This document shows, piece after piece, positions 14,454 to 63,917 of a stretch of DNA of 64,000 nt. Location: contig CAZKPX010000007.1 of assembly GCA_964554805.1 (NCBI GenBank), forward strand, positions 314-64,313, read 5' to 3'. Both the position numbers and the translations under genes were made by a program. The stretch's first letter is position 1; each line of letters opens with the position of its first letter. Source of the stretch: an uncultured Candidatus Saccharibacteria bacterium. GTDB lineage: Bacteria > Patescibacteriota > CAZHWT01. The notes below the pieces were generated by a model. The model was not told the DNA's origin. It worked only from the letters and a program-made list of their open reading frames with translations, and did not search any database.

Positions 14454-14495
14454 GAGCTACTGTCTCCTAGGAGCACAGCTTTGCCAAACAAAGCG

Positions 14496-14650
14496 AATAT
14501 CGAGACAGGGATATCTGTCCTACGGCCAGGGATTCGGATATCGTAAAAACCACCAAAACCAAAAGTCCTGGATTCAGCCCTTTCCATATCCAACATCCGT
14601 GTCTCATGTCTCCATATCCGCCACCAAAGGTGGCCCACTCTACTGGCATT
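14496..14650. repeat. Intergenic hairpin-containing repeat, family 1, copy R1
   Basis: Shares the modules GGATATCGTAAAA, CGAGACA(C)GG / CCGTGTCTC, CCAGGGATTCG and ATATCCGCCAC-N4-GTGGC with copies at 42996-43125 and 54478-54600. Internal inverted repeats are present. Confidence 0.6.
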
Positions 14651-14978: not shown

Positions 14979-15665
14979 ATGAGATTACTTTTAGTTGAAG
15001 ACGAGATCAAATTAGCCAGCTCCTTGGCCAAAGTCCTTCAAGGCCAGGGATATACAATCGACGTATTCCATGATGGTCAGCAAGGCTATTTTCAAGCTGC
15101 CACCGAAAACTACGATCTCATCCTGCTTGATATCGGACTGCCTTCAATGGACGGTCTGGGAATATGCGCAGCTCTTAGAAAAGAAGGCAACCAAGCTCCC
15201 ATCCTCATGCTAACCGCCCGAGATGATACCGCCGATAAGATTTCCGGTCTCGATGGCGGAGCCGATGATTATCTGGTTAAGCCATTCCAGGTCGATGAGC
15301 TGCTAGCCCGCATACGATCTCTGCTTCGTCGAGGCAAGTCTGACCCCTTGATCCTGCAGGTTGGTTCGCTAGAGCTCAATCCCGCCACCAGGCAAGTCAC
15401 TCGCAGCGGCCAAGCTATTGAGTTGTCTGCCCGTGAGTATGCGTTACTAGAGTTTTTTATGCGTCATCCCAAGCATATTTTATCCAAACAACAGCTCCTT
15501 GATCATGTCTGGGGTGGAGAAGTCGACCCATTCTCAAATGTCATTGATGTATATATGGGTTATTTGCGCAACAAAATCGATCGACCTTTCCCAGATCAAC
15601 CCGCTCTCATCACAACCGTCAAAGGCTTAGGCTATAAGATAGATTTCCTAAATCCTAAATCCTAA
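14979..15665 (+). CDS. OmpR-family response regulator
   Basis: Receiver domain (LLVEDE, phospho-acceptor D in LILLDIGLP, conserved K in DDYLVKPF) and a winged-helix output domain (GYLRNKID...VKGLGYK). Confidence 0.9.
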   Translation: MRLLLVEDEIKLASSLAKVLQGQGYTIDVFHDGQQGYFQAATENYDLILLDIGLPSMDGLGICAALRKEGNQAPILMLTARDDTADKISGLDGGADDYLVKPFQVDELLARIRSLLRRGKSDPLILQVGSLELNPATRQVTRSGQAIELSAREYALLEFFMRHPKHILSKQQLLDHVWGGEVDPFSNVIDVYMGYLRNKIDRPFPDQPALITTVKGLGYKIDFLNPKS

Positions 15666-15690
15666 TCCGCCAGCTGGTGGACTAAATCCT
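15647..15690. repeat. TAAATCC-hairpin-TAAATCC short repeat, family 2, copy at the response-regulator 3' end
   Basis: CCTAAATCCTAAATCCTAATCCGCCAGCTGGTGGACTAAATCCT; the response-regulator stop codon TAA lies inside it. Related copies at 27909-27988 and 33910-33944. Confidence 0.55.
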
Positions 15691-24086: not shown

Positions 24087-27000
24087 ATGTCAGAAGACCT
24101 TTTCCTCCAGCGCTATTCACAGCTGAATTCCAAACAAAAACAAGCCGTCGATGCTATCGAAGGGCCGGTTATGGTGGTTGCTGGTCCCGGATCGGGCAAA
24201 ACAGAGCTGCTTAGTCTGCGCGTTGCCAATATTTTGCGCAATGCTCCTGATATTACCGCCAGCAACATACTTTGCTTAACCTACACTGAAGCCGGCGCCA
24301 CAAATATGCGCCAGCGGCTAGCTGGGTTAATCGGTCATCAAGCCTACAAGGTCACGATCAACACCTTCCATGGCTTTAGCTCCGACATCATTGGTCGCTA
24401 CGGCGAATATTTTTACAGCGGCGCCACCTTGCAGCCAGCCGACGATCTAACCAAAATAGAAATACTACAGAATATTCTCAATCAACTATCTCACGACGAT
24501 CCATTAGCCAGCCAATTCCTCGGCACCCATACTTATATCAAAGATATATCCTCAGCCATTGGCGATCTCAAAAAAGCCGGACTTACCCCTGATCAATTTG
24601 CCTACCTTTTAGAAAAAAACCAAGTCATGGTTCAAGCGGTTAGCCATGATATTCAAAGTATCTTTAGTGGCACAGTTGATCAAAAAAGTCTCCCCGCTGC
24701 CCAAGAGTTAGTTGCCAAAATGCGGGCCCTCAGTCTCGTAGACCAAGAGCAATCAGCTATTCAGCTGGGGCAATTTGATAACATTCTGACCATTCTTGCC
24801 GACAGCCTCGAATTAGCCATAACCCAATCGCAAGGCATCACCAGATACGCCCCACCACTTACCAAATGGAAAAACGACTTCACCAAAAAAGATGCCACCG
24901 GGCTAGTTCAGCTCAAAGAGCAAGACCGCTTACCCAAACTTTTATCATTAGCTACTATTTACCAGCGATATCAAGAAGCAATGACCGTTCAGCGCTTCTA
25001 CGACTTCGACGACATGGTTCTTGATGTGCTCAACGCCTTAGCCAGCCAACCGGCTCTGGGCTATGCTTTGCAGGAACAATACCAATATATCTTGGTCGAT
25101 GAGTTTCAAGACACAAACGACGCCCAAATGAGATTGCTGGCTCATCTGACTAGCGCCGAACTGCATGAAGGGCGTCCAAATATTATGGTTGTTGGCGACG
25201 ATGACCAGGCAATCTACAAGTTTCAAGGTGCCACCATCAGCAATATCCATCAATTCACCCAGCGCTACTCTGATCCTCAAGTCATCGTCTTGACCGACAA
25301 TTATCGCTCCAGCCAGCGCATCCTAGACGTTTCCAGGCAGATTATCATTCAGGGTCAGGATAGGCTCGAGACAATTCAGACTGATATCATTAAAGAACTA
25401 ACTGCCCAAGGTCAGCATGCACGCCACCAGCATCAGCCTCAGTTTCACCTCTATCAAACACAGGAGCAGGAATTCTCAGCCACCGCTCAAGCCATCAAAG
25501 ATCATCTCGATAGCATCGGCTGGGACAAAGCAGCACACATTGCCGTTATCTGCGCTCGTCGCAAGGACCTTGAGCAGTTTGCCCTCCATTTAGGGCTACT
25601 TGGGGTACCGGTGCGGTACGATCGTCAAAAAGATGTGCTACAAGAGCCACATATTCATCAGCTCATCCAAATGGCTCGGTTTATTGCCAAGCTATCTCGT
25701 CATCAGCAAGCCGAAGCGGATGACCTGCTGCCGGAAATCCTCAGCTATCCATTTTGGAATATTGATCGCCAGACCCTATGGCAACTTGCCGTCAATGCCA
25801 GTTTGGCCAAACAGCAGCAGCGCTTATGGCTAGACCAAATGGACAACTCAGACCATCCTCGCCTGGTTGCCATCTCGCAGTGGTTCAAACAACTTCGCCT
25901 CCTATCCGAAACCGAATCAATAGAAACCATACTCGAGCACCTCATCGGCGCCCATACACCATTACTCCCCGCCGACGAAGACTCCGACATCGACTGGCTG
26001 ACCGATAACCCGTCGCCCGTCGCCCGTCGCCCGTCGCCCGAAGGCGAAGGATTCGCCTTCGCCTCACCCTTCAAAGACTTCTACTTCGATACCTCATCAA
26101 ATCAGGCCATCGATCAGGGCAGGTATGTCAGCTTTTTATCTAGCCTCCAAGTCTTTATCAAAAAACTTCGTGCTTACAGGCCCGGGCAAATGCTCAAGCT
26201 CGATGATTTGCTAACCTTTGTCGACTTGCACTTGGCCAACGATATCAAAATTACTGACACCTCCGTCTATGCCTCAGGCTCGCAAGCCGTTCAACTCTTA
26301 ACTGCTCATGGAGCCAAAGGTCTCGAGTACGATACCGTGTATTTATTGTCCTGCGTGCAGCCAGTTTGGGTATCAAAAGGCTGGACAAACAAGCTAACCT
26401 TTTCGGACAACATGCCTATCGCCATGGATTCAGACAACCTCGACGATAAGCTTAGGCTGTTCTTCGTTGCTGTCACTCGGGCCAAGCAGCAACTCTTCTT
26501 AAGCGCATATAATCAGCAGTCTGATGGCAAGGAAGTCCAACAGCTCGGCTTCTTGGTGGAAGTTCTAGCTGGCCAACAGGTGGATTCGCAGGCAGCTGCT
26601 CTGGATAAGCCAGCTGAAGTTCTGGCAGAATCCTGGAAGACCTACCATCAACCTCCTGTACAAGTGAGTGAACAAGCCATATTGTTGCCGTTGGTAGAGA
26701 ATTATCAGCTCAGCATCACTCACCTTAATGACTTTCTGGATGTGACAAGAAATGGTCCGCAGGACTTTTTGCAACAGCACTTACTAAGATTCCCACAGCC
26801 AAAATCAACGGCCCAAGCTTACGGAACTGCCGTCCATGAAGCTCTTCGCCAGCTCTTCGAAAAGCTTCGTTTTGACACGACCCTACCCTCTATTGATTTT
26901 CTTCAGCAAGCTTTCGTGGCAGCTCTCGAGTCAGAGCGGCTCAACAATCAGGATCATCGCAAATTGCTAGAACGCGGTCAACAAGAATTAGACTTGTACT

Positions 27001-27908: not shown

Positions 27909-27988
27909 AATCCTAAATACCGTCCGCCTCCGCCAGCCAGCGAATCCTAAATCCTTCCGCCTCTGCCAGCCGGCGGATCCTAAATCCT
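27909..27988. repeat. Two tandem copies of the TAAATCC-hairpin-TAAATCC repeat (family 2)
   Basis: CTAAATACCGTCCGCCTCCGCCAGCCAGCGAATCCTAAATCCTTCCGCCTCTGCCAGCCGGCGGATCCTAAATCCT in a 530-bp non-coding stretch. Confidence 0.5.
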
Positions 27989-33699: not shown

Positions 33700-33909
33700 A
33701 AGATATGGTTTTCTTTCTGCTGACTGTCATAAAGTATGAACAGATGAGCATCAAGGCACCCCATTCACAACATGTGCGTTCAGCACGCACCAGACAAAGC
33801 GGTTATATGTCTTTTATTGTAACATAAACCAAATCATAAGTCAAATGCTATAGGACAAAACACCTAAGATTGACCGTAAAATGAGTTCGTCCAGCAAGTC
33901 ATAGCGACC

Positions 33910-33944
33910 TAATTTCTAATCCGCCAACTGGCGGACTAAATCCT
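33910..33944. repeat. TAAATCC-hairpin repeat (family 2) overlapping the 3' end and stop codon of the Dus gene
   Basis: TAATTTCTAATCCGCCAACTGGCGGACTAAATCCT; the stop (cta on +) and the last codons of the minus-strand gene lie within it. Confidence 0.5.
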
Positions 33945-40005: not shown

Positions 40006-41689
40006 CTGTCTCTCTTCCTCGCTTAAGAGTTCGAAAATGACCGACTTTGCTAGGCATTCTCAAGCTCTCAAATCCAGGATCACTCGTTTTGTCGTCTCTT
40101 AGTAACTCGCAAGTCGCGACGACATCGTTGTGTTCCATTGTCTTCTCAGTGCTCAGGTGAGCTTTTGCATAGTAACTCAGCACCCCAAAATCTGTCAACC
40201 CCTCAAAAGTATCAAAATATTATTGTCATAACAAGCAAAACAATTCACAGCAAAAACGCGAAAGTGCCCGGTTGAAATATCCAACCGGGCTACTCTCTCC
40301 TTTGATTCTGCGCTCCTTCTTGTAAGCTATGGCCAGATCTGCGTTCAATCTAACGGTAGCTCAAAAGCATATGTACTTAGGGTGCATCTGCTGGCTTTTC
40401 ACCAACGTATGACACGATAATGCTGCCATCAATGTAGTAATTAGTGGCACCAGAAACTGCTTCTGGGCCAGGCTCGCGAGTAGCCTTGCCACTTTGCCAC
40501 CAGTGAACAAACCTCTGCCATATGTTGGCAACCAAAAAACTCATGAGAATCCCCCTCTCAGTTTTTCGTGGAATAAATGATGAAATGTCGGATCCAGCAA
40601 TCCAATCAGTAGTGAAGTTTTGCACTACTCATCACCAACAAGCCTGGTTGCTTGTTAAACATATACTAAAACAATAGTTTTTGGCTGTCAAGTCAACCAA
40701 ATGTAATTATATTGATTTTTATGATGGTAATAGGAAAAATTGCCGATTATGTTCAAAGTAGCTATTAAAAGTTGGCAGCTGGCTGGAGATATTCCTCCAG
40801 CCAGCCAGTGCTGACAGCGCCTAGTTGCCGTATTGCGGCCGACCAAGCGGCTCCGACCCGCACTTGCCGCCAGGGCTGATGCGATTGAGGCGGGTGTGGG
40901 TTTCCTCCCTCACTCGGCAGTTTTTGACTGCCTGCTGACGGAAGAACATACTCCTGGTGGGCTTTGTCACCTCTTTGGTGTCAGCCGCGATTCTGGAAGC
41001 CTGGTCTCCGATAACTCCAAAAAACTCATCCGGTCTTGCCACGTCTCGCCTCCGTTGGCGTTTTGGGGCACAATTGCCCCTCTCTGGTCCATCTCTCCAT
41101 TGCAACCCATGGCTGCGGATAGGCCGTCGGCCATTGTACCAAACCATTACTTTACAGGCAAGCAAAAGAGCCCTACCAACCAAACACTTCCGGAAGTAAG
41201 CTTCAAAGTTCAAATCAGGGGCAGATTGACATCTCTGGGGTTGTTTATTTGAGTAGCAATGCAGTAATGTCCATGCGAGTTTGCTCAGGATTTGAGGAAG
41301 TGAGCCGTATTTCTTGTGTCGTGCTGTTTCTCCGAGCAATCAGCCGAATATGGCCATCCGGTGCTATGTACTGGATTTTAATAGTCAGTTTTTCGGGACC
41401 ACGACTGCCTCGAACCGAAGTAATAACTCCCGGCATGATAGTTTGTACTTCAAGCAGGGCCTCAATCGGCTCCAGGGCGGCAATTAAGTTTTCAATAGGG
41501 TGGTGTTTCAGGACAATCTTGCCATACTTCCCACCTCGATGTTGATGAACAGGCATGGAGGTATTATAACGTAAAACGCAAAAGGCAAAAGTCAAAACTG
41601 AAACGAAAAGCTCAAAAGCACTTCTAGGCATAGTTTCAAGTTTCAAAGTATAGCTGTGAGCTTTTAATGTTAAGTTTTGAGTTATCCTC

Positions 41690-42976
41690 CTATTCCAAAA
41701 CAGCCTTGCCATTAAAAGATACAAAATCTGGAACACGCTTAACCGGATAATCTTGAATAGCTCGCGCGGAACTAATAGCATGAGAGCCGTAGCCAGCTTG
41801 AATATCTTGGATAGCTAGTCGCAACTGTCGACCTCGATCGCCATGCCACAGCGTCATCTGCCCATCATCTACGTCCTCCAGCTCAAAGCAGCCTACCGAC
41901 ACCTTGCGAATTGGCCAGCCAATATCAACATACGGATTCGCCTCAGCTTTGCTTATCAAATCCCAAATATACTGATACAACCCATCCCACCCTACAATCT
42001 TGGCCGGACAGCGAGCTTGAGTGTGCCAAAACTGCCATTCGCCCCACATCACATAGACAAACACTCCATCTGCTTGCAGAGATTTTCTGCTCAATCGGGA
42101 TCCAAGTTTATGGCACAGTTTTGAAACAACCGTCTGCAACTCTGCCATATTCCTGGCCGGCTTTGGAAGCGAGTACTCGTGACTCAATGTCCGTCGTTGT
42201 TGAAGGTAGTCATCAACCTCATAGCCATGCATCTTGGCTGCATAATAGAAGCCCAGGATAGATTCAAACGATTGACGAAGAGTGTCGATATTCGCCCGAT
42301 ACATGTCCAGGGGTGTGTAAATGCCATGTTTGCGTAATCGGCTGGCATTTGCTTTAGCTATGCCATGCAAATCTTCTAACTCAAGGCCTGATAGCACCTC
42401 CTCAATGTTCCACCATTGCAATTCTTCTAAACCATCTGGCTTGACCAACCCAGCTGCTTGCTTGGCCAGCCACCGATTAGGCCCAATACCAATTGATACA
42501 CTCATCCACTCCCCGATTTCTTGGCGAATACGTCTCTTCATCTCTTGACCAACAACCAGTAATCCCTGTTCCATCGCAGGTGTATGACCTAAATGAAGTG
42601 CAATTTCGTCAATGCTTCTGACTTCCATGCGGGGTGTATAGCTATAGCAGATCTTAGCCAGTTCTTTATTGATCCAACGGTATTTGGCCGGATCAGTCTG
42701 CACCACAATAACTCCAGGATAGATCTTTTTAGCCTCACTGACCGACATAGCTGTTTTAATACCGTGTCGCTTAGCCTCGATGCTAGGAGACAAAATGCAG
42801 CTATTGCGTCCTGTGTAAGCTGCCACTACGACGGGCCTACCTCGCAGCAGGCTATTGCATTGTTGCTCAACCGTGGCAAAACACGAATTAATATCAACAT
42901 GCAGCACATCAGACTGCTTGTCAATAAAAGGTAAATGCTCTAGTCCGGGTTGAAGAAGATGGGCAAGAGAAGACAT
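41690..42976 (-). CDS. Y-family DNA polymerase (DinB/UmuC-like, translesion synthesis)
   Basis: N-terminal catalytic motif HVDINSCFATVEQ (DxxxF[FA]xxE) and about 428 aa of polymerase-like sequence. Confidence 0.85.
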   Translation of the reverse strand: MSSLAHLLQPGLEHLPFIDKQSDVLHVDINSCFATVEQQCNSLLRGRPVVVAAYTGRNSCILSPSIEAKRHGIKTAMSVSEAKKIYPGVIVVQTDPAKYRWINKELAKICYSYTPRMEVRSIDEIALHLGHTPAMEQGLLVVGQEMKRRIRQEIGEWMSVSIGIGPNRWLAKQAAGLVKPDGLEELQWWNIEEVLSGLELEDLHGIAKANASRLRKHGIYTPLDMYRANIDTLRQSFESILGFYYAAKMHGYEVDDYLQQRRTLSHEYSLPKPARNMAELQTVVSKLCHKLGSRLSRKSLQADGVFVYVMWGEWQFWHTQARCPAKIVGWDGLYQYIWDLISKAEANPYVDIGWPIRKVSVGCFELEDVDDGQMTLWHGDRGRQLRLAIQDIQAGYGSHAISSARAIQDYPVKRVPDFVSFNGKAVLE

Positions 42977-42995
42977 AAAGCTTAGCTCATAGCTA

Positions 42996-43125
42996 CCTGC
43001 GGTAGCGGATATCGAGACACGGATATTGGATATCGTAAAACACTAGCATCCAGCATCCAGAATCAAGCTCTCGCCATATCCCATATCCGCCACTGGAAGT
43101 GGCCCAGTCCCGTGTCTCTATATTC
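42996..43125. repeat. Intergenic hairpin-containing repeat, family 1, copy R2
   Basis: ATATCGAGACACGG, GGATATCGTAAAAC, CCATATCC, ATATCCGCCACTGGAAGTGGCCCAGTCCCGTGTCTC, collinear with copy R1. Sits between the small upstream ORF and the polymerase start. Confidence 0.6.
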
Positions 43126-43149
43126 GCTTTGCCAAGCAAAGCTATGCGA

Positions 43150-43407
43150 TTACCCCGCCAGCCCGTCATCTATTTGACGAAGAGTGAACTTCATATTGGT
43201 CAAGTCCAAGAGCAGCTCAAAATATTGTCCAGCAGCCACACAGCAATACACAATACAGTCTCGCGCGTCTTGGACCATATTAAAAGTATGGTCTAGCCTG
43301 TCGACCTTATAGTTTTTATTGCGCCACTGTATATACAACGGCATAGCCGGCTGCTTGGCTTCCGATAGGAAATAGACTGATACCGGCTCGTCAATTGTTT
43401 GTCTCAT
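43150..43407 (-). CDS. Hypothetical protein co-oriented upstream of the Y-family polymerase
   Basis: GGAGG RBS 5 nt before the ATG at 43407. 85 aa, no recognised motif; it is not a LexA/UmuD-like S24 peptidase. Confidence 0.4.
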   Translation of the reverse strand: MRQTIDEPVSVYFLSEAKQPAMPLYIQWRNKNYKVDRLDHTFNMVQDARDCIVYCCVAAGQYFELLLDLTNMKFTLRQIDDGLAG

Positions 43408-43603
43408 ATTCCTCCTATGAATTAAAAACGTATAATTCAAACGGCAAAACTTCAACTTTAAGCTATGCAACTAATCACCAAAGCCTAAAATTCTGAGTTT
43501 AATTTTGACTGGTAAGTTTTAACGTTTGAGTTGTATATATAATACCCAAACAATACCCGAATATACAAGAGGCAAATTAACCGAGCTAGATTAAGAGATA
43601 AAA

Positions 43604-54412: not shown

Positions 54413-54436
54413 TCAAGACTCCGCTCACATATAAAA

Positions 54437-54466
54437 AATCCCCGCTCAACCGGGGATTTTTTATGC
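54437..54466. terminator. Bidirectional rho-independent terminator
   Basis: AAAAAATCCCCG-CTCAAC-CGGGGATTTTTT. Confidence 0.65.
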
Positions 54467-54477
54467 CCGCAACGCAC

Positions 54478-54600
54478 AGCCACCAAAGATGGCGGATATC
54501 TGTCCTGCAGCCAGGGATTCGAGACACGGATATCGTAAAATGCCAGAATCTAGCTTCCTCTATATCCTATATCCAAATATTCGCCAGCGCCACTGACTCC
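54478..54600. repeat. Intergenic hairpin-containing repeat, family 1, copy R3 (opposite orientation), upstream of the atp cluster
   Basis: CCACCAAAGATGGCGGATATCTGTCC, CCAGGGATTCGAGACACGGATATCGTAAAA ... ATATCC modules shared with R1 and R2. Confidence 0.55.
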
Positions 54601-54712: not shown

Positions 54713-55567
54713 ATGTTCACCGTTGTAGCCGCTATTGTTTTTATAGTCATCGTTATTATTCTCGTCTCCTTGTACGTAGTTCTTCATCGTCGCGAGCAAA
54801 AACTAGTCAAAGAGCTCAAAGATACCAAGCAAAAAGCTGCTGATGGCGGTTTCTTAGAAAATAGACTCCAAGAAATCCAATCCAGAGCGCTGCAGCAAGA
54901 GCAAAAAATCCTCGAAGATGCTCAGGTTCAAGCTAGTACTGTGGTTACCCAAGCCCAGCAACAAGCCAGCCAAGCAATCGCTGGAGCCCAGGCTCAAGCG
55001 GAGCAGGTGGTCAGTCAAGCGCAGACTCAAGTTCAGCAGTCATTGACCCAAGCTCAACAGCAAGCCACACAGTTAACAACCGCTGCCAGTCAGCAAGCGC
55101 AACAATTAGTTGAGCAAACCGCTACTACCCTCAAAACCATTGAGACCGAATTTCAGCAGAACGAAGAGCAGCAATTAGCGCCGGTTTATGATCAGGCGGC
55201 TCAAAGTGTTACCAATGTCACTAGTCAGCTTGAAGAAAAAACCCAGCAGCTGTTCGACAAGATGCAAACCGAGATGACCGCTCAGATCCAGACTCGCTAT
55301 CAAGAAATGGATAGCAAGATGGAAGGGGAGTGGGCTGCCGCGCGAGCCAACATTGAAGAATACAAAAAGCAGAAGCAAGCAGAAGCTGATCAGTGGAAGG
55401 CTGACTCGGAAAAGCGACTTGAGGACAATATTTTAGAACTACTGTCAGAAACTCTCAAAACCACCATCCATGTTACCCTTACTCCCAAAGAGCACCAAAA
55501 GCTAGTTTTTGATGCTCTGGAACAAGCCAAGGAGAATAATGCCTTTACAGCCGCAGATCCAAAGTGA
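54713..55567 (+). CDS. atpF: F-type ATP synthase subunit b-like (elongated, Gln/Ala-rich coiled coil)
   Basis: Single N-terminal TM helix, then a long predicted coiled coil with low-complexity QAQQQASQ repeats. Position immediately upstream of delta-alpha-gamma-beta-epsilon. At 284 aa it is far longer than typical b subunits. Confidence 0.55.
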   Translation: MFTVVAAIVFIVIVIILVSLYVVLHRREQKLVKELKDTKQKAADGGFLENRLQEIQSRALQQEQKILEDAQVQASTVVTQAQQQASQAIAGAQAQAEQVVSQAQTQVQQSLTQAQQQATQLTTAASQQAQQLVEQTATTLKTIETEFQQNEEQQLAPVYDQAAQSVTNVTSQLEEKTQQLFDKMQTEMTAQIQTRYQEMDSKMEGEWAAARANIEEYKKQKQAEADQWKADSEKRLEDNILELLSETLKTTIHVTLTPKEHQKLVFDALEQAKENNAFTAADPK

Positions 55568-55571
55568 TGTC

Positions 55572-56216
55572 ATGGCATTGATTGCCACCATCCCTACAGT
55601 CAAAGAGGCTGTTTTAACCAAGCAGGGCTTGCGTAGTTTGCGTGATGAAATTCTCTACCGCAATGCCAAGAATCCGCTTAAGGCCAATGACAACGAGCGG
55701 CTGCAGTCGCTTGGGCTAGGGCAGCTTGTCATGGACTGGTTGGTCTCCGAAGGCGGTCGGACTGCGTTTGATGATATTAAAAACTGCGGTCCGGACGCCA
55801 TTCTGCAGGCCTTTGACGCCGGTCTTAAACAGGTTGAATTGGTCCAGCTAACACTGGCCTATGTCGCTTCGGTCGATGATGCTGTACGGTACCATAAATG
55901 GTTTAATCAAGTCTTAAATCGCCCGGTTATGCTTGATTTGCGTCTCAACCCTCAGCTTTTGGCAGGCGTCATGTTTGTTTATCAAAATCATCTCTATGAT
56001 TACAGTCTGCGTCGCCAAATGCCCCAACTCCAACAAGCTCTATTAGAAAACTACAAACAATTCACGGCTAGCCAATCTACGCCTGCAACAAGCGACGAGT
56101 CACAAGCGACGAGTCAATTAACTCAAGATGTAGACAAAAATACAGAAGTCGGTACTAATACTCGTCGCCAGTCGCCAGTCGCCAGTACTCTTCATGACGG
56201 AGCAATTCCGTCATGA
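55572..56216 (+). CDS. atpH: F-type ATP synthase subunit delta (OSCP-like) with repeat-derived C-terminal extension
   Basis: Position between b and alpha; ATG 4 nt after the atpF stop; ATGA overlap with atpA. The C-terminus (...ATSDESQATSQ...RRQSPVAS...) is encoded by a GCGACGRG-type element. Confidence 0.6.
   Translation: MALIATIPTVKEAVLTKQGLRSLRDEILYRNAKNPLKANDNERLQSLGLGQLVMDWLVSEGGRTAFDDIKNCGPDAILQAFDAGLKQVELVQLTLAYVASVDDAVRYHKWFNQVLNRPVMLDLRLNPQLLAGVMFVYQNHLYDYSLRRQMPQLQQALLENYKQFTASQSTPATSDESQATSQLTQDVDKNTEVGTNTRRQSPVASTLHDGAIPS
56088..56188. repeat. GCGACGRG-type inverted-repeat element, copy A (in the atpH 3' coding region)
   Basis: Left end GCGACGAGTCACAAGCGACGAGTC (56092-56115); right end CTCGTCGCCAGTCGCCAGTCGCCAG (56161-56185), the reverse complement of GCGACGRG arrays. 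In frame. Confidence 0.6.
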
Positions 56217-57883
56217 AGAAGACGTACCAAGAGTACATTAACGAAGGTCACGAATCCGGCGCCATTATGTCTGCTCAGGGTTTTACAGCCATCGCTCAAG
56301 GCTTGCCTTCGATTGCAGTCAACGAACTGGTCCAAACCGAATCAGGTGCCCAAGCCATCGTCAACTCCCTGTATGAAGATACAGTTGAACTACTAATGAT
56401 CGACAGAGGCAGTGCCTCAAAAGGTGAGCCACTAGTAGCCATCAATCAGATTTTATCAGTACCATGCGGACCGTCATTAAAAGGTCGCATGATTAGCCCA
56501 TTAGGCGAACCATTGGACGGCAAAGAAGAGTTGACCGATGTCCAAATGATGCCCTTAGAGAATGAAGCCCCGCCAATTTATAAACGATCTAAGATTAGAG
56601 ACCAGCTTATTACCGGCATAATGCTATCAGACCTATTGGTTCCACTGGGACGCGGCCAACGTGAGGTTGTAATGGGAGACGCTAAGAGTGGTAAGACCAG
56701 TTTCTTACTGCCAATCCTGATGCATGCCAAAGAAGAAAATATGGTCGGTGTCTATGTTGGCATTGGTAAAACTCGCTCCGAATTGCGTCGTATCGCCACT
56801 CAATTAATCGACAACAATCCTGGCAGCGATATTGTGGTGGTGGGTACCTCATCATCTGATTCAGTCACCATGCAATACTTAGCTCCTTATGCCGGCATGA
56901 CTATGGCTGAATATTTCCGCGATCAGGGGCAGGACGTTTTCTTAGTTCTAGATGATCTGGGCAATCATGCCAAAGCTTACCGTGAAATCTCACTATTAAA
57001 TAATCGACTGCCTGGTCGAGACTCCTATCCTGGAGATATTTTCTATGCCCACTCTCGATTATTGGAGCGAGGTGGGTGCGTGGTCGGTCCTCAAGGTCAA
57101 CCAAACACCATCACCCTTATGCCAATCATCGAAACTATTGGCGGTGATGTGACTGGCTATGTCCAAACCAACCTCATTTCAATGTCGGATGGACACACCC
57201 TTTTTGATCTCGAAACCTTCTACAAAGGTATTCGCCCAGCTATCAATATTGGTTTGTCAGTCTCTCGTGTTGGTAAGCAGACTCAAACCAAGCTCCAAAA
57301 GTTCGTAGCTAGCGAATTGCGGGTCATGATAGCTCAGTATCAGGATGCCAAAAACTTCGTTCGTTTCGGTGCCGAACTAACTGACAAAACCAAACTGCTC
57401 TTCTTACGAGGCACCATTTTCGACGAACTGATCAAGCAGGACCTCAGCACTCATCTCAAGCGTCATGAGCAGTTACTGGTCATGTTGGCTCTCCTGGATG
57501 GCTTCTATGACCCATTTCCTCTCAAGGAAATACTGCAGGTCCGCAAAAAACTGCTGGAAATCTTTGCTCAGTCTCAATATGAGCAACTGCGCCAAGCCTT
57601 ATTAGACAGTGCTGATCCAGAAGTCCGTCAGCCTCTTTTGGATGCCATTTACAAGGAGGTCGCTCAGGCCTACGGGCTAAAAGATGGCACCGCTTCACCA
57701 GTAGCAGCCTCCACTCAAGCCCAGCTCGGCCGCGGCCAGGACGCCACTACGCCAGAACTAGAAGGTGGAACTAGTACTAGTGCCGACACCATGCAACCAC
57801 AATCACCTTCTAGTTCTAGTTCTAGTTCTAGTCCTAGTCCTAGTCCTAGTCCTAGTTCTAGTTCTGAAGGAGGTACTAAATAA
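56213..57883 (+). CDS. atpA: F-type ATP synthase subunit alpha with Ser/Pro-rich C-terminal extension
   Basis: P-loop GDAKSGKT, alpha-type core (PLGRGQREVVMGD, PGRDSYPGDIFYAHSRLLERG). An extra 50-aa or so low-complexity C-terminal tail is encoded partly by a hexanucleotide repeat. Confidence 0.85.
   Translation: MKKTYQEYINEGHESGAIMSAQGFTAIAQGLPSIAVNELVQTESGAQAIVNSLYEDTVELLMIDRGSASKGEPLVAINQILSVPCGPSLKGRMISPLGEPLDGKEELTDVQMMPLENEAPPIYKRSKIRDQLITGIMLSDLLVPLGRGQREVVMGDAKSGKTSFLLPILMHAKEENMVGVYVGIGKTRSELRRIATQLIDNNPGSDIVVVGTSSSDSVTMQYLAPYAGMTMAEYFRDQGQDVFLVLDDLGNHAKAYREISLLNNRLPGRDSYPGDIFYAHSRLLERGGCVVGPQGQPNTITLMPIIETIGGDVTGYVQTNLISMSDGHTLFDLETFYKGIRPAINIGLSVSRVGKQTQTKLQKFVASELRVMIAQYQDAKNFVRFGAELTDKTKLLFLRGTIFDELIKQDLSTHLKRHEQLLVMLALLDGFYDPFPLKEILQVRKKLLEIFAQSQYEQLRQALLDSADPEVRQPLLDAIYKEVAQAYGLKDGTASPVAASTQAQLGRGQDATTPELEGGTSTSADTMQPQSPSSSSSSSSPSPSPSPSSSSEGGTK
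57809..57862. repeat. Hexanucleotide microsatellite (YCTAGT)x9 inside the atpA C-terminal extension
   Basis: TCTAGT x4, CCTAGT x4, TCTAGT x1 read directly; encodes SSSSSSSSPSPSPSPSSSS. Confidence 0.9.
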
Positions 57884-58794
57884 TGCAAAAACTCAAACAG
57901 ATCGAACAACAGTTATCCGATGTCGGCCTACTCCAAGAGCTAACATCTACCTTCGAATCAATCGCTGCTCAGAATCTGGCCAATACTCGAGACAAAGTTT
58001 TGTCAGCCAGACAATTTCTCGAAGAAGCGCAGCAAATCTACACTGAAGCCCGCGATATCTTCGTCGCCCAACATAAGCTGACCGAGAAAAAGCTGGAGTA
58101 TCACCAGCAGCTTTCGATTCGTCAAGACAACGGCAAGCATCTGTCGATTGTCATCGCCCCGAACACCAAACTCTATGGCGCCTTGCCTGACCAGCTGCTC
58201 AACTCGGTAGTCGAATCGATTCGCAAAGAGCCGCGCGATGTCTTGGTTTTAGGTAAGGTTGGGGTAGAGCATTTTGCTCGTCTCAAGCCTGCTATCCCAT
58301 ATACAACGCTGGATATTGGCAACGAAGATTACTCCATGGAGCAAGTCCGCGCTATTGTGCAATTTGTATCGCAGTATCGCAAGGTTACGGCCTATTACAA
58401 TCACTTCAGAACAATCCTAACCTCGGAGGTTCTCGAAGCTTCACTCAACCTTACCACAGCCCCGAGTGTCCAAACAGACCAGCCTGCAGAGCCAGAAAAA
58501 CCAGCCAAAGGGCTCAACAAGTTTATTGCCAAGCAAGACGCTCTAGTCGAGCCGTCGCTCGAAGAAGTACTCAACTTCTTCGAGACAGTTATCCTCAAAA
58601 CCATTCTGCAGCAAAAAGTCCGCGAATCGCTGCTATCCCGCTATGCGGCCCGTATGGTTGCCATGGATGTAGCCACCGAGAATGCCAAAGAGGAGTCCAA
58701 GCGATTACTCCAAGCCAGACGTCGAGCCAAGCGAGTTAAAGCCAATCAAAAAATGCTCGATAGCTACTCAGGTTTAAGTTTATGGATGAAATAG
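57883..58794 (+). CDS. atpG: F-type ATP synthase subunit gamma
   Basis: Position between alpha and beta; N- and C-terminal helices typical of gamma (C-terminal ...QKMLDSYSGLSLW-like); 303 aa. Confidence 0.75.
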   Translation: MQKLKQIEQQLSDVGLLQELTSTFESIAAQNLANTRDKVLSARQFLEEAQQIYTEARDIFVAQHKLTEKKLEYHQQLSIRQDNGKHLSIVIAPNTKLYGALPDQLLNSVVESIRKEPRDVLVLGKVGVEHFARLKPAIPYTTLDIGNEDYSMEQVRAIVQFVSQYRKVTAYYNHFRTILTSEVLEASLNLTTAPSVQTDQPAEPEKPAKGLNKFIAKQDALVEPSLEEVLNFFETVILKTILQQKVRESLLSRYAARMVAMDVATENAKEESKRLLQARRRAKRVKANQKMLDSYSGLSLWMK

Positions 58795-61159
<2,365 letters not shown>

Positions 61160-61162
<3 letters not shown>

Positions 61163-61420
61163 CCTCACGTCAAACCAACTTTCCATCTACGCATCAGCAA
61201 TCCGGAACGGGTATTCTTTGATGGCAACGCCTATAGTCTGTCATCAAAAAATAACTCCGGCCCTTTCGACATTCTCCCTGATCACGCTCAATTTATATCG
61301 CTCCTCAATCAGGCCGAAGTATCTGTCCATCAAGAAGACGACAAAACCCAAACCTACGCCATCAACCGCGGTCTCATATCAGCCAAGGGCAATATTGTTA
61401 GGGTGTTTGTAGACATCTAG
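61160..61420 (+). CDS. atpC: F-type ATP synthase subunit epsilon
   Basis: 86 aa; the epsilon-like beta-sandwich N-terminus (RISNPERVFFDGNAYSL) follows beta directly; AAGGAG RBS. Confidence 0.75.
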
Positions 61421-61498: not shown

Positions 61499-61870
61499 AT
61501 GCAGCAGTCAAAGGCTTCATACGAAAAGCTAATTGTATGGCAAAGATCAATAGCTCTTACCGTAAGGGTTTATAAACTAACTTCTAGTTTTCCCGACGAA
61601 GAAAAGTATGCATTAAAGAATCAAATACAGAGAGCTGCTGTATCTATAGCAAGCAATATAGCCGAGGGCTATGGTAGAAATAGCACTAAAGAATTTTCAA
61701 GATTTTTACTAATTGCAAACGGGTCAGCAGCCGAATTAGCCACACAATTAGTTGTAGTTAAGTCTATTGGCTTATTGTCATCTGATGAGTGTGATCATGT
61801 GTTAACAGAAATTAACAGCATTAAGGCAATGATATTTAGTCTAGTTAAAAAATTAAAAGCTACTAGTTAA
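61499..61870 (+). CDS. Four-helix-bundle protein (TIGR02436 / 23S rRNA intervening-sequence protein / Avd-like)
   Basis: About 120 aa with YEKLIVWQRS...ALTVRVYKLTSSFP...KNQIQRAAVSIASNIAEGYGR...LLIANGSAAELATQL, the canonical four-helix-bundle family pattern. Flanked by 11-bp direct repeats TATAAGTTATG (61491-61501 and 61929-61939). Confidence 0.8.
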   Translation: MQQSKASYEKLIVWQRSIALTVRVYKLTSSFPDEEKYALKNQIQRAAVSIASNIAEGYGRNSTKEFSRFLLIANGSAAELATQLVVVKSIGLLSSDECDHVLTEINSIKAMIFSLVKKLKATS

Positions 61871-62939: not shown

Positions 62940-62978
62940 ACTTGGTATTATAGGGGAGAGTGGAGATATAAATCAAAA

Positions 62979-63012
62979 GGCAAAAGGCAAAGGGCAAAAA
63001 TTAAAGTGAAAA
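62979..63012. repeat. Left arm of the perfect 34-bp inverted repeat flanking the second four-helix-bundle gene
   Basis: GGCAAAAGGCAAAGGGCAAAAATTAAAGTGAAAA; its reverse complement is at 63469-63502. Confidence 0.9.
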
Positions 63013-63093
63013 TTAAAAAGTTTCTCACTTAACCCCCGCATAAGCTATGCTTGGCTGTTGACGTTATTATGACTTTATTGTTATATACTCTAT

Positions 63094-63453
63094 ATGCAAA
63101 ATGCGCAGAGGGATGACCTGAAAAACCGAGCTTATCGATTTAGTTTGGCTTTGATCCAGATGATTAGTATAGCGAACAAAGGTATGTCGAATGAAATTAT
63201 TTGTAGACAGTTACTGCGATCGGGAACGAGCATTGGTGCTAATCTGGTGGAAGCTCGAGCATCAACATCTCGCCTTGAATATAAAAAGTTTCATGAGATA
63301 GCACTAAAGAGTGCCAACGAAACAATCTACCGGTTAGATCTATTAAGAGATTCAAACAACAGAGCGCCAAGTACTATTGATACTCTAAGAAACGAAGTAG
63401 ATCAGCTGTCCAGGATGATTGGCTCCGGAGTTATAAAACTTAAGTCTAAATAA
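63094..63453 (+). CDS. Four-helix-bundle protein (TIGR02436 / IVS-protein / Avd-like), second copy
   Basis: AYRFSLALIQMISIANKG...QLLRSGTSIGANLVEARAS...FHEIALKSANETIYRLDLL, the family pattern. Flanked by a 34-bp perfect inverted repeat. Confidence 0.8.
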   Translation: MQNAQRDDLKNRAYRFSLALIQMISIANKGMSNEIICRQLLRSGTSIGANLVEARASTSRLEYKKFHEIALKSANETIYRLDLLRDSNNRAPSTIDTLRNEVDQLSRMIGSGVIKLKSK

Positions 63454-63468
63454 GACCCAGCTTTAAAT

Positions 63469-63502
63469 TTTTCACTTTAATTTTTGCCCTTTGCCTTTTG
63501 CC
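63469..63502. repeat. Right arm of the 34-bp inverted repeat
   Basis: TTTTCACTTTAATTTTTGCCCTTTGCCTTTTGCC, the exact reverse complement of 62979-63012. Confidence 0.9.
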
Positions 63503-63917
63503 CTCTAACTTTAACAGTTCAAAAACAACACCGTTTCATCCTCCCCTCGCAACAGCATAAACGCACATTTAACCTATTGACATAATCATCCAACCATTGC
63601 ATCATGGAACAAGCAGGCATTATGTTTGCTAATTATTCAGTATCATTTGAGCTGCTCCATAGCTTCAGAAGATTATTGAATCAAGTCGAAAGTGAGGTGG
63701 TAGCAAGACAGAACATAATTTACTTTATGCTAGTAGGCGCTAGATTGCGCCTGGTTTCCAGCGGTACTGGAGCCTGCCTTATTCGGCATCTAAAGTTACC
63801 ATCAAAATTCGCAATAAAGCAGGCGTAACCAAGCGCCTATTCGTTAGAAAGACCGTATTTAAACGGCAAATTATTAGAAACTCATCGGCTTCGTCCGATA
63901 GAAAGAGGAAATTAGAT

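Follow-up and report, generated by a model that had tools for sequence, protein, structure and literature searches.

What are the three stretches of related, non-coding DNA that lie between genes in this window (the whole stretch of DNA analysed here, 64,000 nucleotides long), and how did they come to be there? An initial annotation had described three intergenic, hairpin-bearing repeats, and its central observation holds: three scattered non-coding elements of ~110–165 bp, each able to form hairpins, occupy the places it gave and adjoin the genes it named. The limits that it drew, on the other hand, had to be moved, as they left out terminal hairpins at 14478–14494 in copy 1 and at 42992–43006 and 43126–43142 in copy 2. 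As refined here, and with no strand assigned to the whole elements, copy 1 spans 14473–14640 (168 bp), copy 2, the most complete palindrome, spans 42987–43149 (163 bp), and copy 3, which is degenerate and rearranged, spans 54474–54584 (111 bp).

The relationship among the three copies is genuine and far exceeds what chance would produce. There are three exact matches to the 13-mer GGATATCGTAAAA in the window, one per element and all on the + strand (starting at 14536, 43028 and 54528), for a chance expectation of about 1.2 matches in the window even when two mismatches are allowed; likewise, all four sites in the window that match CGAGACACGGATAT with at most two mismatches fall inside the elements (0.29 expected). 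Pairwise nhmmer E-values, obtained alongside word-7 blastn comparisons, were 3.4e-9 for copies 1 and 2, 6e-6 for copies 1 and 3, and 7e-5 to 1e-5 for copies 2 and 3, and a profile of the core recovered the copies at 6.8e-15, 4e-17 and 4.6e-10, respectively. Neither method found a fourth copy in the 64-kb window. Likeness between any two copies reaches only 65–80%, the order of modules varies from copy to copy, and the alignment is confined to the elements themselves. Since the flanks of the three copies are unrelated and the copies are spaced 28.5 kb and 11.5 kb apart, they are not the outcome of a segmental duplication. The elements are non-coding. The open reading frames over them differ between copies, none of the ten reading frames over or beside the elements was present in the protein collection, and a phmmer search with the 58-aa reading frame of copy 2 against 1.84 billion representatives returned spurious tandem-repeat proteins only.

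Each element is a mosaic. Copy 1 begins with an end unit on the + strand (14478–14500), in which GCACA stands in front of the hairpin GCTTTG-CCAAA-CAAAGC (in full GCTTTGCCAAACAAAGC) and GAATAT follows, with CGAGACAGG directly behind it at 14501–14509. Directly after the second GATATC comes a module that we call X, here TGTCCTACGGCCAGGGATTC (14516–14535, +), followed by the core (14536–14591, +), which consists of GGATATCGTAAAA, a variable stretch, CCTGGATTCAGC and then CCATATCC. The right end unit (14597–14640) reads on the − strand as GAGTGG, the hairpin GCCACC-TTT-GGTGGC, GGATAT and GGAGACATGAGACACGG; in + reading, this terminus is CCGTGTCTC-ATGTCTCC-ATATCC and then the hairpin GCCACCAAAGGTGGC. 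The left end unit of copy 2 (42992–43027, +) is preceded by TCATA and is composed of the hairpin GCTACC-TGC-GGTAGC, GGATAT, CGAGACACGG and ATATT. Its core (43028–43088, +) contains GGATATCGTAAAA, a variable stretch, CCAGAATCAAGC and then CCATATCC-C-ATATCC, and is joined by an internal hairpin module on the − strand (43083–43109; GACTGG, hairpin GCCACT-TCC-AGTGGC, GGATAT) and by a right end unit, also on the − strand (43110–43147; GCATA, hairpin GCTTTGC-TTG-GCAAAGC, GAATAT, AGAGACACGG). Read on the + strand, the right part of copy 2 thus runs through a GCCAC..GTGGC hairpin, CCAGTC, CCGTGTCTC-T-ATATTC, the hairpin GCTTTGCCAAGCAAAGC and TATGC. Copy 3 starts with GCACA in front of an imperfect hairpin, GCCACC-AAA-GATGGC (in full GCCACCAAAGATGGC), and GGATATC (end unit 54479–54500, +), and carries its version of module X, TGTCCTGCAGCCAGGGATTC (54501–54520, +), between the first GATATC and GAGACACGG. 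The core and right side (54520–54584, +) comprise CGAGACACGG overlapping GGATATCGTAAAA, then CCAGAATCTAGC, CTATATCC-T-ATATCC and ATATTCGC. This copy is degenerate: all that remains of its right side is ATATCC-T-ATATCC-AA-ATATTCGC, with neither CCGTGTCTC nor a right-hand hairpin.

The relations among these parts are of several kinds. The two ends of copy 2 mirror each other (42987–43022 against 43110–43147), the left end of copy 1 is the inverted counterpart of the right end of copy 2 (82% complementary over 38 nt), and the internal hairpin module of copy 2 is 83% identical to the right end of copy 1 as a direct repeat. Copy 2 lacks module X (TGTCCTRCRGCCAGGGATTC, 20 nt), which is 93% identical between copies 1 and 3; it always lies immediately 3' of a GATATC, but at two different internal positions, and the GCCAC hairpin block takes three different positions in the three copies. 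The modules had been presented as shared by all copies and arranged in one order, a picture that does not survive closer reading: CCAGGGATTC is limited to copies 1 and 3 and CCGTGTCTC to copies 1 and 2, and the GCCAC hairpin follows CCGTGTCTC in copy 1, precedes it in copy 2 and sits at the left end in copy 3. Nor is copy 3 inverted as a whole, because its core aligns plus to plus with both others and only the hairpin-GGATAT module is flipped. The loop of this hairpin, given before as N4, has 3 nt if the stem is counted as 6 bp and 5 nt if it is counted as 5 bp, and the stem in copy 3 contains a mismatch; the pattern with an N4 loop yields a single match.

What recurs throughout is a small structural unit. 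Most end units consist of a hairpin, GRATAT and then (C/A/G)GAGACA(C/G)GG, and the units at the two ends of an element are in inverted orientation. The unit hairpins are 15–17 nt long, with conserved neighbours (5' CAYA and 3' GRATAT), and there are five with perfect stems and one with an imperfect stem, all of them intergenic. Perfect hairpins with stems of 5 bp or more that run directly into GRATAT occur at five sites in the window, compared with 0.43 in shuffled sequence, and 5/5 lie inside copies 1 and 2. Three stem types can be distinguished (GCTTTG/CAAAGC, GCTACC/GGTAGC and GCCACC/GGTGGC); read directly from the sequence, they differ at four positions with complementarity kept, while the GC clamp and the adjoining GRATAT stay constant. 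A single element can bear two of these types, namely GCTTTG and GCCACC in copy 1, and GCTACC and GCTTTG in copy 2. The elements make up 442 bp, or 0.7% of the window, yet they hold 13 of its 43 GGATAT sites and all five of its GAGACASGG sites. The hexamers are arranged with invariable symmetry around the GGATATCGTAAAA core, with GGATAT to the left and ATATCC to the right. Beyond GCAYA-hairpin-GRATAT, no precisely common termini can be defined.

The capacity to fold as a whole differs between the copies. The single-stranded DNA of copy 2 has a folding energy of −27 kcal/mol (z −4.1) and that of copy 1 one of −21.6 kcal/mol (z −3.4), and in neither case did any of 200 shuffled sequences fold as well. 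As RNA, copy 2 gave z −3.1 on the + strand and −2.0 on the − strand, and copy 1 gave z −2.6; in copy 3 a stable fold is absent (z +0.6). The only helices common to all three copies are two nested GGATAT/ATATCC stems, and these are invariant and therefore provide no evidence from covariation.

All three elements lie shortly after the end of a gene, at distances of 2–61 nt. Copy 1 starts 19 nt past the stop codon of a DnaJ-domain gene and ends 338 nt before the ATG of a response-regulator gene, the first of a pair encoding an OmpR-type response regulator and a histidine kinase. Copy 2 fills the gap between the stop of an 85-aa gene (43150–43152) and the ATG of dinB (42976), both on the − strand; counting the GCATA flank, it begins 2 nt past the former and ends 10–15 nt before the latter. 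Copy 3 follows the stop of a 218-aa gene by 61 nt, just after that gene's terminator-like hairpin at 54430–54462, and precedes the first gene of the atp cluster by 128 nt. The neighbours are housekeeping genes in conserved order rather than gene cassettes. The earlier suggestion that such elements might carry promoters or terminators finds no counterpart here, as no sigma-70-like promoter or intrinsic terminator consensus was found inside any copy, and no role in rearrangement was seen other than the shuffling of modules within the elements themselves. One candidate for a weak promoter, GAGACA-16 nt-TAAAAC in copy 2, was discarded because its spacing is not preserved in copies 1 and 3.

Searches for a mobilising enzyme and for relatives of the repeat elsewhere were negative within their scope. 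The window reading frames scanned with Pfam, the Logan gene tables and the loci of relatives revealed no transposase, RAYT or integrase, and the window contains no parent insertion sequence with the same ends. Inspection of the flanks revealed no direct repeat at any of the three copies, so the target-site duplications for which the initial annotation had proposed to look are not visible at any of them. No tRNA genes were found. Rfam 15 gave no match at the gathering score, and up to an E-value of 10 only sub-threshold chance matches. On genome contigs, the pattern GGATATCGTAAAAN{15,45}ATATCC proved too loose, with 119 chance matches in unrelated taxa, none of them with GAGACACGGATAT. The pattern TCGAGACASGGATATN{0,28}CGTAAAA, which matches all three copies, returned a single chance match from JGI metagenomes, inside a coding gene of a low-GC organism, and no match from viral contigs; distant-mode blastn with copy 2 against plasmids and phages found no match either. 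By these sequence searches the repeat family appears to be rare outside its host lineage, and on its abundance within that lineage the metagenome and viral scans are silent.

How the elements came to lie between genes can be read from related genomes. The order of genes around dinB is conserved in two relatives, L128 and L129, but the spacer between the stop of the small gene and the dinB ATG is not. In the window it measures 173 bp and contains copy 2. In L129, whose DinB is 72% identical, it measures 16 bp (TAA-TCCGCCAAGGACTGCC-ATG), and in L128, with DinB 83% identical, it measures 153 bp and contains an unrelated A-rich palindromic repeat. The window and L129 spacers differ by 157 bp, which is the length of copy 2 as delimited by its inverted ends, and copy 2 is thus a clean insertion of ~157 bp. 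The elements came into intergenic DNA immediately 3' of genes by insertion, as the ~157 bp gained by a 16-bp spacer demonstrates at dinB, the one locus at which an empty site was recovered, from a fairly distant relative. A possible homology of copy 2 to the 153-bp repeat of L128 was rejected as not significant (35 of 300 shuffled sequences scored equally), and ~62 kb of sequence from relatives contained no copy of the three-copy family. At the other two loci there was no orthologous site to compare: the DnaJ-domain neighbour of copy 1 has no homologue except itself, and, around copy 3, only 91 bp of L132 precede its atp cluster, and L130 and L131 do not reach the site. Separately, the small gene directly upstream of dinB is itself conserved in the window (43150–43407, −), L128 (7395–7652) and L129 (9733–9984); it encodes a protein of 83–85 aa without a recorded Pfam hit, and its position 16 bp from dinB at the empty site suggests a dinB-linked operon partner.

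The lineage that hosts the elements probably belongs to the Patescibacteria. Both AtpA and DinB of the window have a handful of relatives at 64–87% identity, with the next matches at ~40%. Among the latter, the named DinB matches are all from Patescibacteria, and the named AtpA matches are from Patescibacteria (WWE3, Levybacteria and others), Acidobacteriota and Aminicenantes. Tracing the genes at the edges of the window did not extend the sequence beyond it. The Logan contigs that match the window come from SRR16798008, SRR16798009 and SRR16797978, and two independent contigs of the same organism break off inside copies 2 and 3. Such placement is unlikely by chance and fits a repeat, a palindrome or a polymorphism; candidate causes are k-mers shared with copies elsewhere, loss of coverage at palindromes, and presence/absence variation. 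This evidence is only suggestive, given that other contigs also end in ordinary genes. The L132 contig (SRR28413663) also starts close to the position of copy 3 in the window (its first 91 bp, 1–91, precede the atp cluster), so that a repeat may break the assembly there too.

To which class of repeats might these elements belong? Correia/NEMIS, ERIC/IRU, pneumococcal BOX and RUP elements are bacterial MITEs or modular intergenic repeats. Bacterial MITEs are typically imperfect palindromes of 100–160 bp with inverted ends, located between genes, often co-transcribed with them and polymorphic for insertion between relatives, and BOX elements have a modular build. The elements studied here resemble these groups in size, inverted ends, modular build, intergenic siting and insertion polymorphism. 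They differ from them in showing no sequence similarity (there is no Rfam match), in having no TA or other target-site duplication, and in ends that bear complete small hairpins. Two further classes agree less well. Elements derived from IS200/IS605 have subterminal hairpins on the same strand and no inverted repeats, whereas the end units here are inverted; integron attC sites have R''/L''...L'/R' boxes, a GTTRRRY core and adjoining gene cassettes, and no GTTRRRY occurs at either end of our elements. Nor do they match any curated RNA family of Rfam 15 at the gathering score.

REP elements and their composites offer a closer comparison. REP/BIME palindromes are 20–40 nt long and imperfect, number tens to hundreds per genome and, like REPINs, have a cognate RAYT gene (for a Y1/HUH transposase) with repeats on either side of it. 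REP/BIME sequences are found in enterobacteria and pseudomonads, where they are associated with RAYT/TnpA-REP (PMC3333891, PMC2817692), and REP-like repeats typically sit shortly after the ends of genes (PMC3333891). Our elements share with them the extragenic location near gene ends, the construction from short, imperfectly palindromic units whose hairpin foot bears a conserved motif, the mosaic of modules and, in copies 1 and 2, the inverse pairing of units around a linker; copy 3 has one unit only. They also vary in their stems with complementarity kept, in the same way as the E. coli REP types, some stem bases of which differ in this manner (PMC3333891, PMC2817692). Nevertheless, in E. coli REPs the 5' foot of the palindrome bears a conserved GTAG tetranucleotide (PMC3333891), and here there is no GTAG/CTAC, only GRATAT on the 3' side and CAYA on the 5' side; furthermore, the linker of ~100 bp has a conserved core of its own, the host is probably a member of the Patescibacteria, and no RAYT gene was seen among the window reading frames. 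The REPIN, a REP doublet that forms a hairpin and whose spacer, up to 110 bp long, is poorly conserved apart from pairing (PMC3116915, PMC3337134), is likewise matched in overall design, as two inverted hairpin-bearing units surround a spacer and a single long hairpin can form from the entire element. Copies 1 and 2 form such a hairpin and copy 3 does not (z +0.6). Both REPs of a REPIN come from a single group, and REPINs are reported never to mix groups (PMC3337134), whereas here the end stems differ within one element and the spacer holds an invariant 13-mer. With no GTAG and with different stems on the two ends of one element, the copies cannot be assigned to any named family by sequence.

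The reading that we prefer, with a probability of about two in three, is that the three loci are a non-coding, non-autonomous palindromic mosaic repeat of the REP/BIME/REPIN- or MITE-like class, of which three copies are known. The MITE/REP-like nature proposed by the initial annotation is in this respect well founded, as the copies are dispersed 11–28 kb apart, have inverted hairpin-bearing ends and are matched by an empty orthologous site at dinB. The general class is already known, and the sequence family seems to be new to the libraries, at least to judge from its absence in every one searched. A more specific variant of the same reading is that these are parts of a REPIN-like system of the probable Patescibacteria lineage, in which the enzyme would read structure plus GGATAT rather than the stem sequence, and in which mosaics could nest within themselves. 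The X block (20 nt) and the GCCAC block (~30 nt) would then insert or recombine independently beside GGATAT(C) junctions, which would explain why X is found at two GATATC positions and the hairpin block at three positions. We consider this variant quite unlikely as it stands.

Three other explanations have to be weighed against the preferred one. The elements could be classical MITEs, that is, deletion derivatives of an insertion sequence with a DDE transposase, moved by cut-and-paste through their terminal inverted repeats. Much of the anatomy agrees with this: the inverted ends of copy 2 extend over ~36 nt, the left end of copy 1 matches the right end of copy 2, the size of 110–165 bp and the non-coding, intergenic and dispersed character are as expected, and presence/absence polymorphism is evident at one site, with 16 bp in L129 against 173 bp in the window. 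However, a target-site duplication is missing at every copy, and the TA beside both ends of copy 2 is no substitute, being part of the conserved CAYA and replaced by CA in copies 1 and 3. The inverted repeats of DDE elements, moreover, do not usually contain complete hairpins with differing stems, and no parent insertion sequence was seen in the window. We therefore regard a DDE-type origin as unlikely; the ends are closer to the REP units that Y1/HUH enzymes read (PMC3333891, PMC3337134) than to the ends of DDE-type MITEs.

The repeats could instead be a cis-regulatory array of the host, in which clustered GGATAT/ATATCC sites for a regulator, or a structured leader RNA, would govern expression of the two-component operon, dinB and the atp cluster; all three copies do lie upstream of operons, copy 1 precedes the gene of an OmpR-type response regulator, and GGATAT is strongly enriched and symmetrically arranged. 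The dinB site speaks against such an array, since it is empty in L129 and occupied by a different repeat in L128, so that the sequence is not a conserved regulatory region. The orientation of the core relative to the downstream gene is also inconstant (the same in copies 1 and 3, opposite in copy 2), the hexamers are spaced 7, 14, 27 and 34 nt apart and hence out of helical phase, the downstream start codon is anywhere from 10 to 338 nt away, and Rfam offers no match. We judge this explanation very unlikely. That there might be no element family at all, and only chance resemblance or a local segmental duplication, could be argued from the small number of known copies, three, and from their divergence. 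The statistics contradict it (E-values down to 3e-9, an exact 13-mer present three times, GAGACASGG confined to the elements at 5/5 sites), as do unrelated flanks on copies that lie 11–28 kb apart, and this explanation is hardly credible.

Under the preferred reading of a non-autonomous palindromic mosaic, the building block is a short, GC-clamped hairpin with a variable stem, followed by GRATAT and, mostly, by (C/A/G)GAGACA(C/G)GG. Two such blocks face each other around the core (GGATATCGTAAAA ... CCWGRATYNAGC ... ATATCC-N-ATATCC), and for this reason an intact element can fold into a long hairpin or cruciform with small side hairpins. The elements would have been copied by an enzyme supplied in trans; variable stems next to a fixed motif, and the lack of a target-site duplication, suggest an HUH/Y1 (RAYT-like) enzyme acting on hairpins of single-stranded DNA rather than to a DDE transposase. 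Modules could later have been shuffled at the repeated GATATC junctions, with copy 3 as a decayed remnant. By analogy with REP/BIME sequences, a transcribed element such as copy 2 may form a stem-loop of about −50 to −65 kcal/mol, which could stabilise the upstream message or dampen the downstream gene at the small gene–dinB junction. Any such effect on expression, whether stabilising a message or damping dinB, is suggested by that analogy.

If the repeat is abundant in the genome, it would represent a palindromic repeat system specific to the lineage of an uncultured bacterium with a small genome, probably of the Patescibacteria. The combination of a variable-stem hairpin with a fixed motif offers a clean substrate for studying how enzymes that recognise hairpins select their target DNA. 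For practical purposes the elements mark break points of assemblies, and where they interrupt an operon, as they do at least once, between the small gene and dinB, they may change its expression. As matters stand, with three diverged copies and no enzyme seen, they are a routine item of annotation rather than a discovery.

Other repeats in the window and its relatives were observed along the way. At 62970–63511, inverted repeats of 51 nt with an A-rich motif (AAAGGCAAAAGGCAAAGGGCAAAAATT...) and 86% complementarity (arms 62970–63020 and 63461–63511) flank a 119-aa gene (63094–63453) of the 23S_rRNA_IVP/bAvd-like family (PF05635, E 1e-17), an arrangement that resembles a small gene cassette bounded by inverted ends. 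Another gene of the 23S_rRNA_IVP family lies at 61499–61870, and a relative, L121, has three, one of them between atpG and atpD. Gene-less, MITE-like palindromic versions of the A-rich repeat, which we refer to as family 2, occur at several intergenic or intra-operon sites across the lineage: at 41565–41690 and ~43425–43530 in the window, upstream of dinB in L128 (7653–7805), and between atpA and atpG in L121–L126 (11636–11731 in L121). The Logan contigs L135 and L136 end in an arm of this family. A third small repeat is found between genes at 15654–15690 and 33908–33944 (89% identical), with a related tandem pair at 27920–27985. It consists of a hairpin, TCCGCCAGCTGGTGGA, flanked by CCTAAATCCTAA / CTAAATCCT, and could represent a further REP-like unit or a terminator common to these sites.

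The atp cluster downstream of copy 3 (54713–61420) has features of its own. It encodes a Q-rich b-like protein (284 aa), a 235-aa protein and then the alpha, gamma, beta and epsilon subunits, and no genes for the a or c subunits were found upstream of it; the L132 orthologue of the Q-rich protein has a weak ATP-synt_B hit. For AtpA of the window, the precomputed hits include none to the N-terminal beta-barrel domain (PF02874), which also holds for some homologues in Patescibacteria. The beta-like reading frame (58798–61092) is 764 aa long, ~290 aa above the usual length, and the orthologue in a relative has 737 aa. Near both of its ends it contains DNA repeats rich in the heptamer CAGTCGC (58850–58945, 60434–60549 and 60737–60867), and similar heptamer runs are present at 26008–26051, 56160–56189 and 61104–61133.
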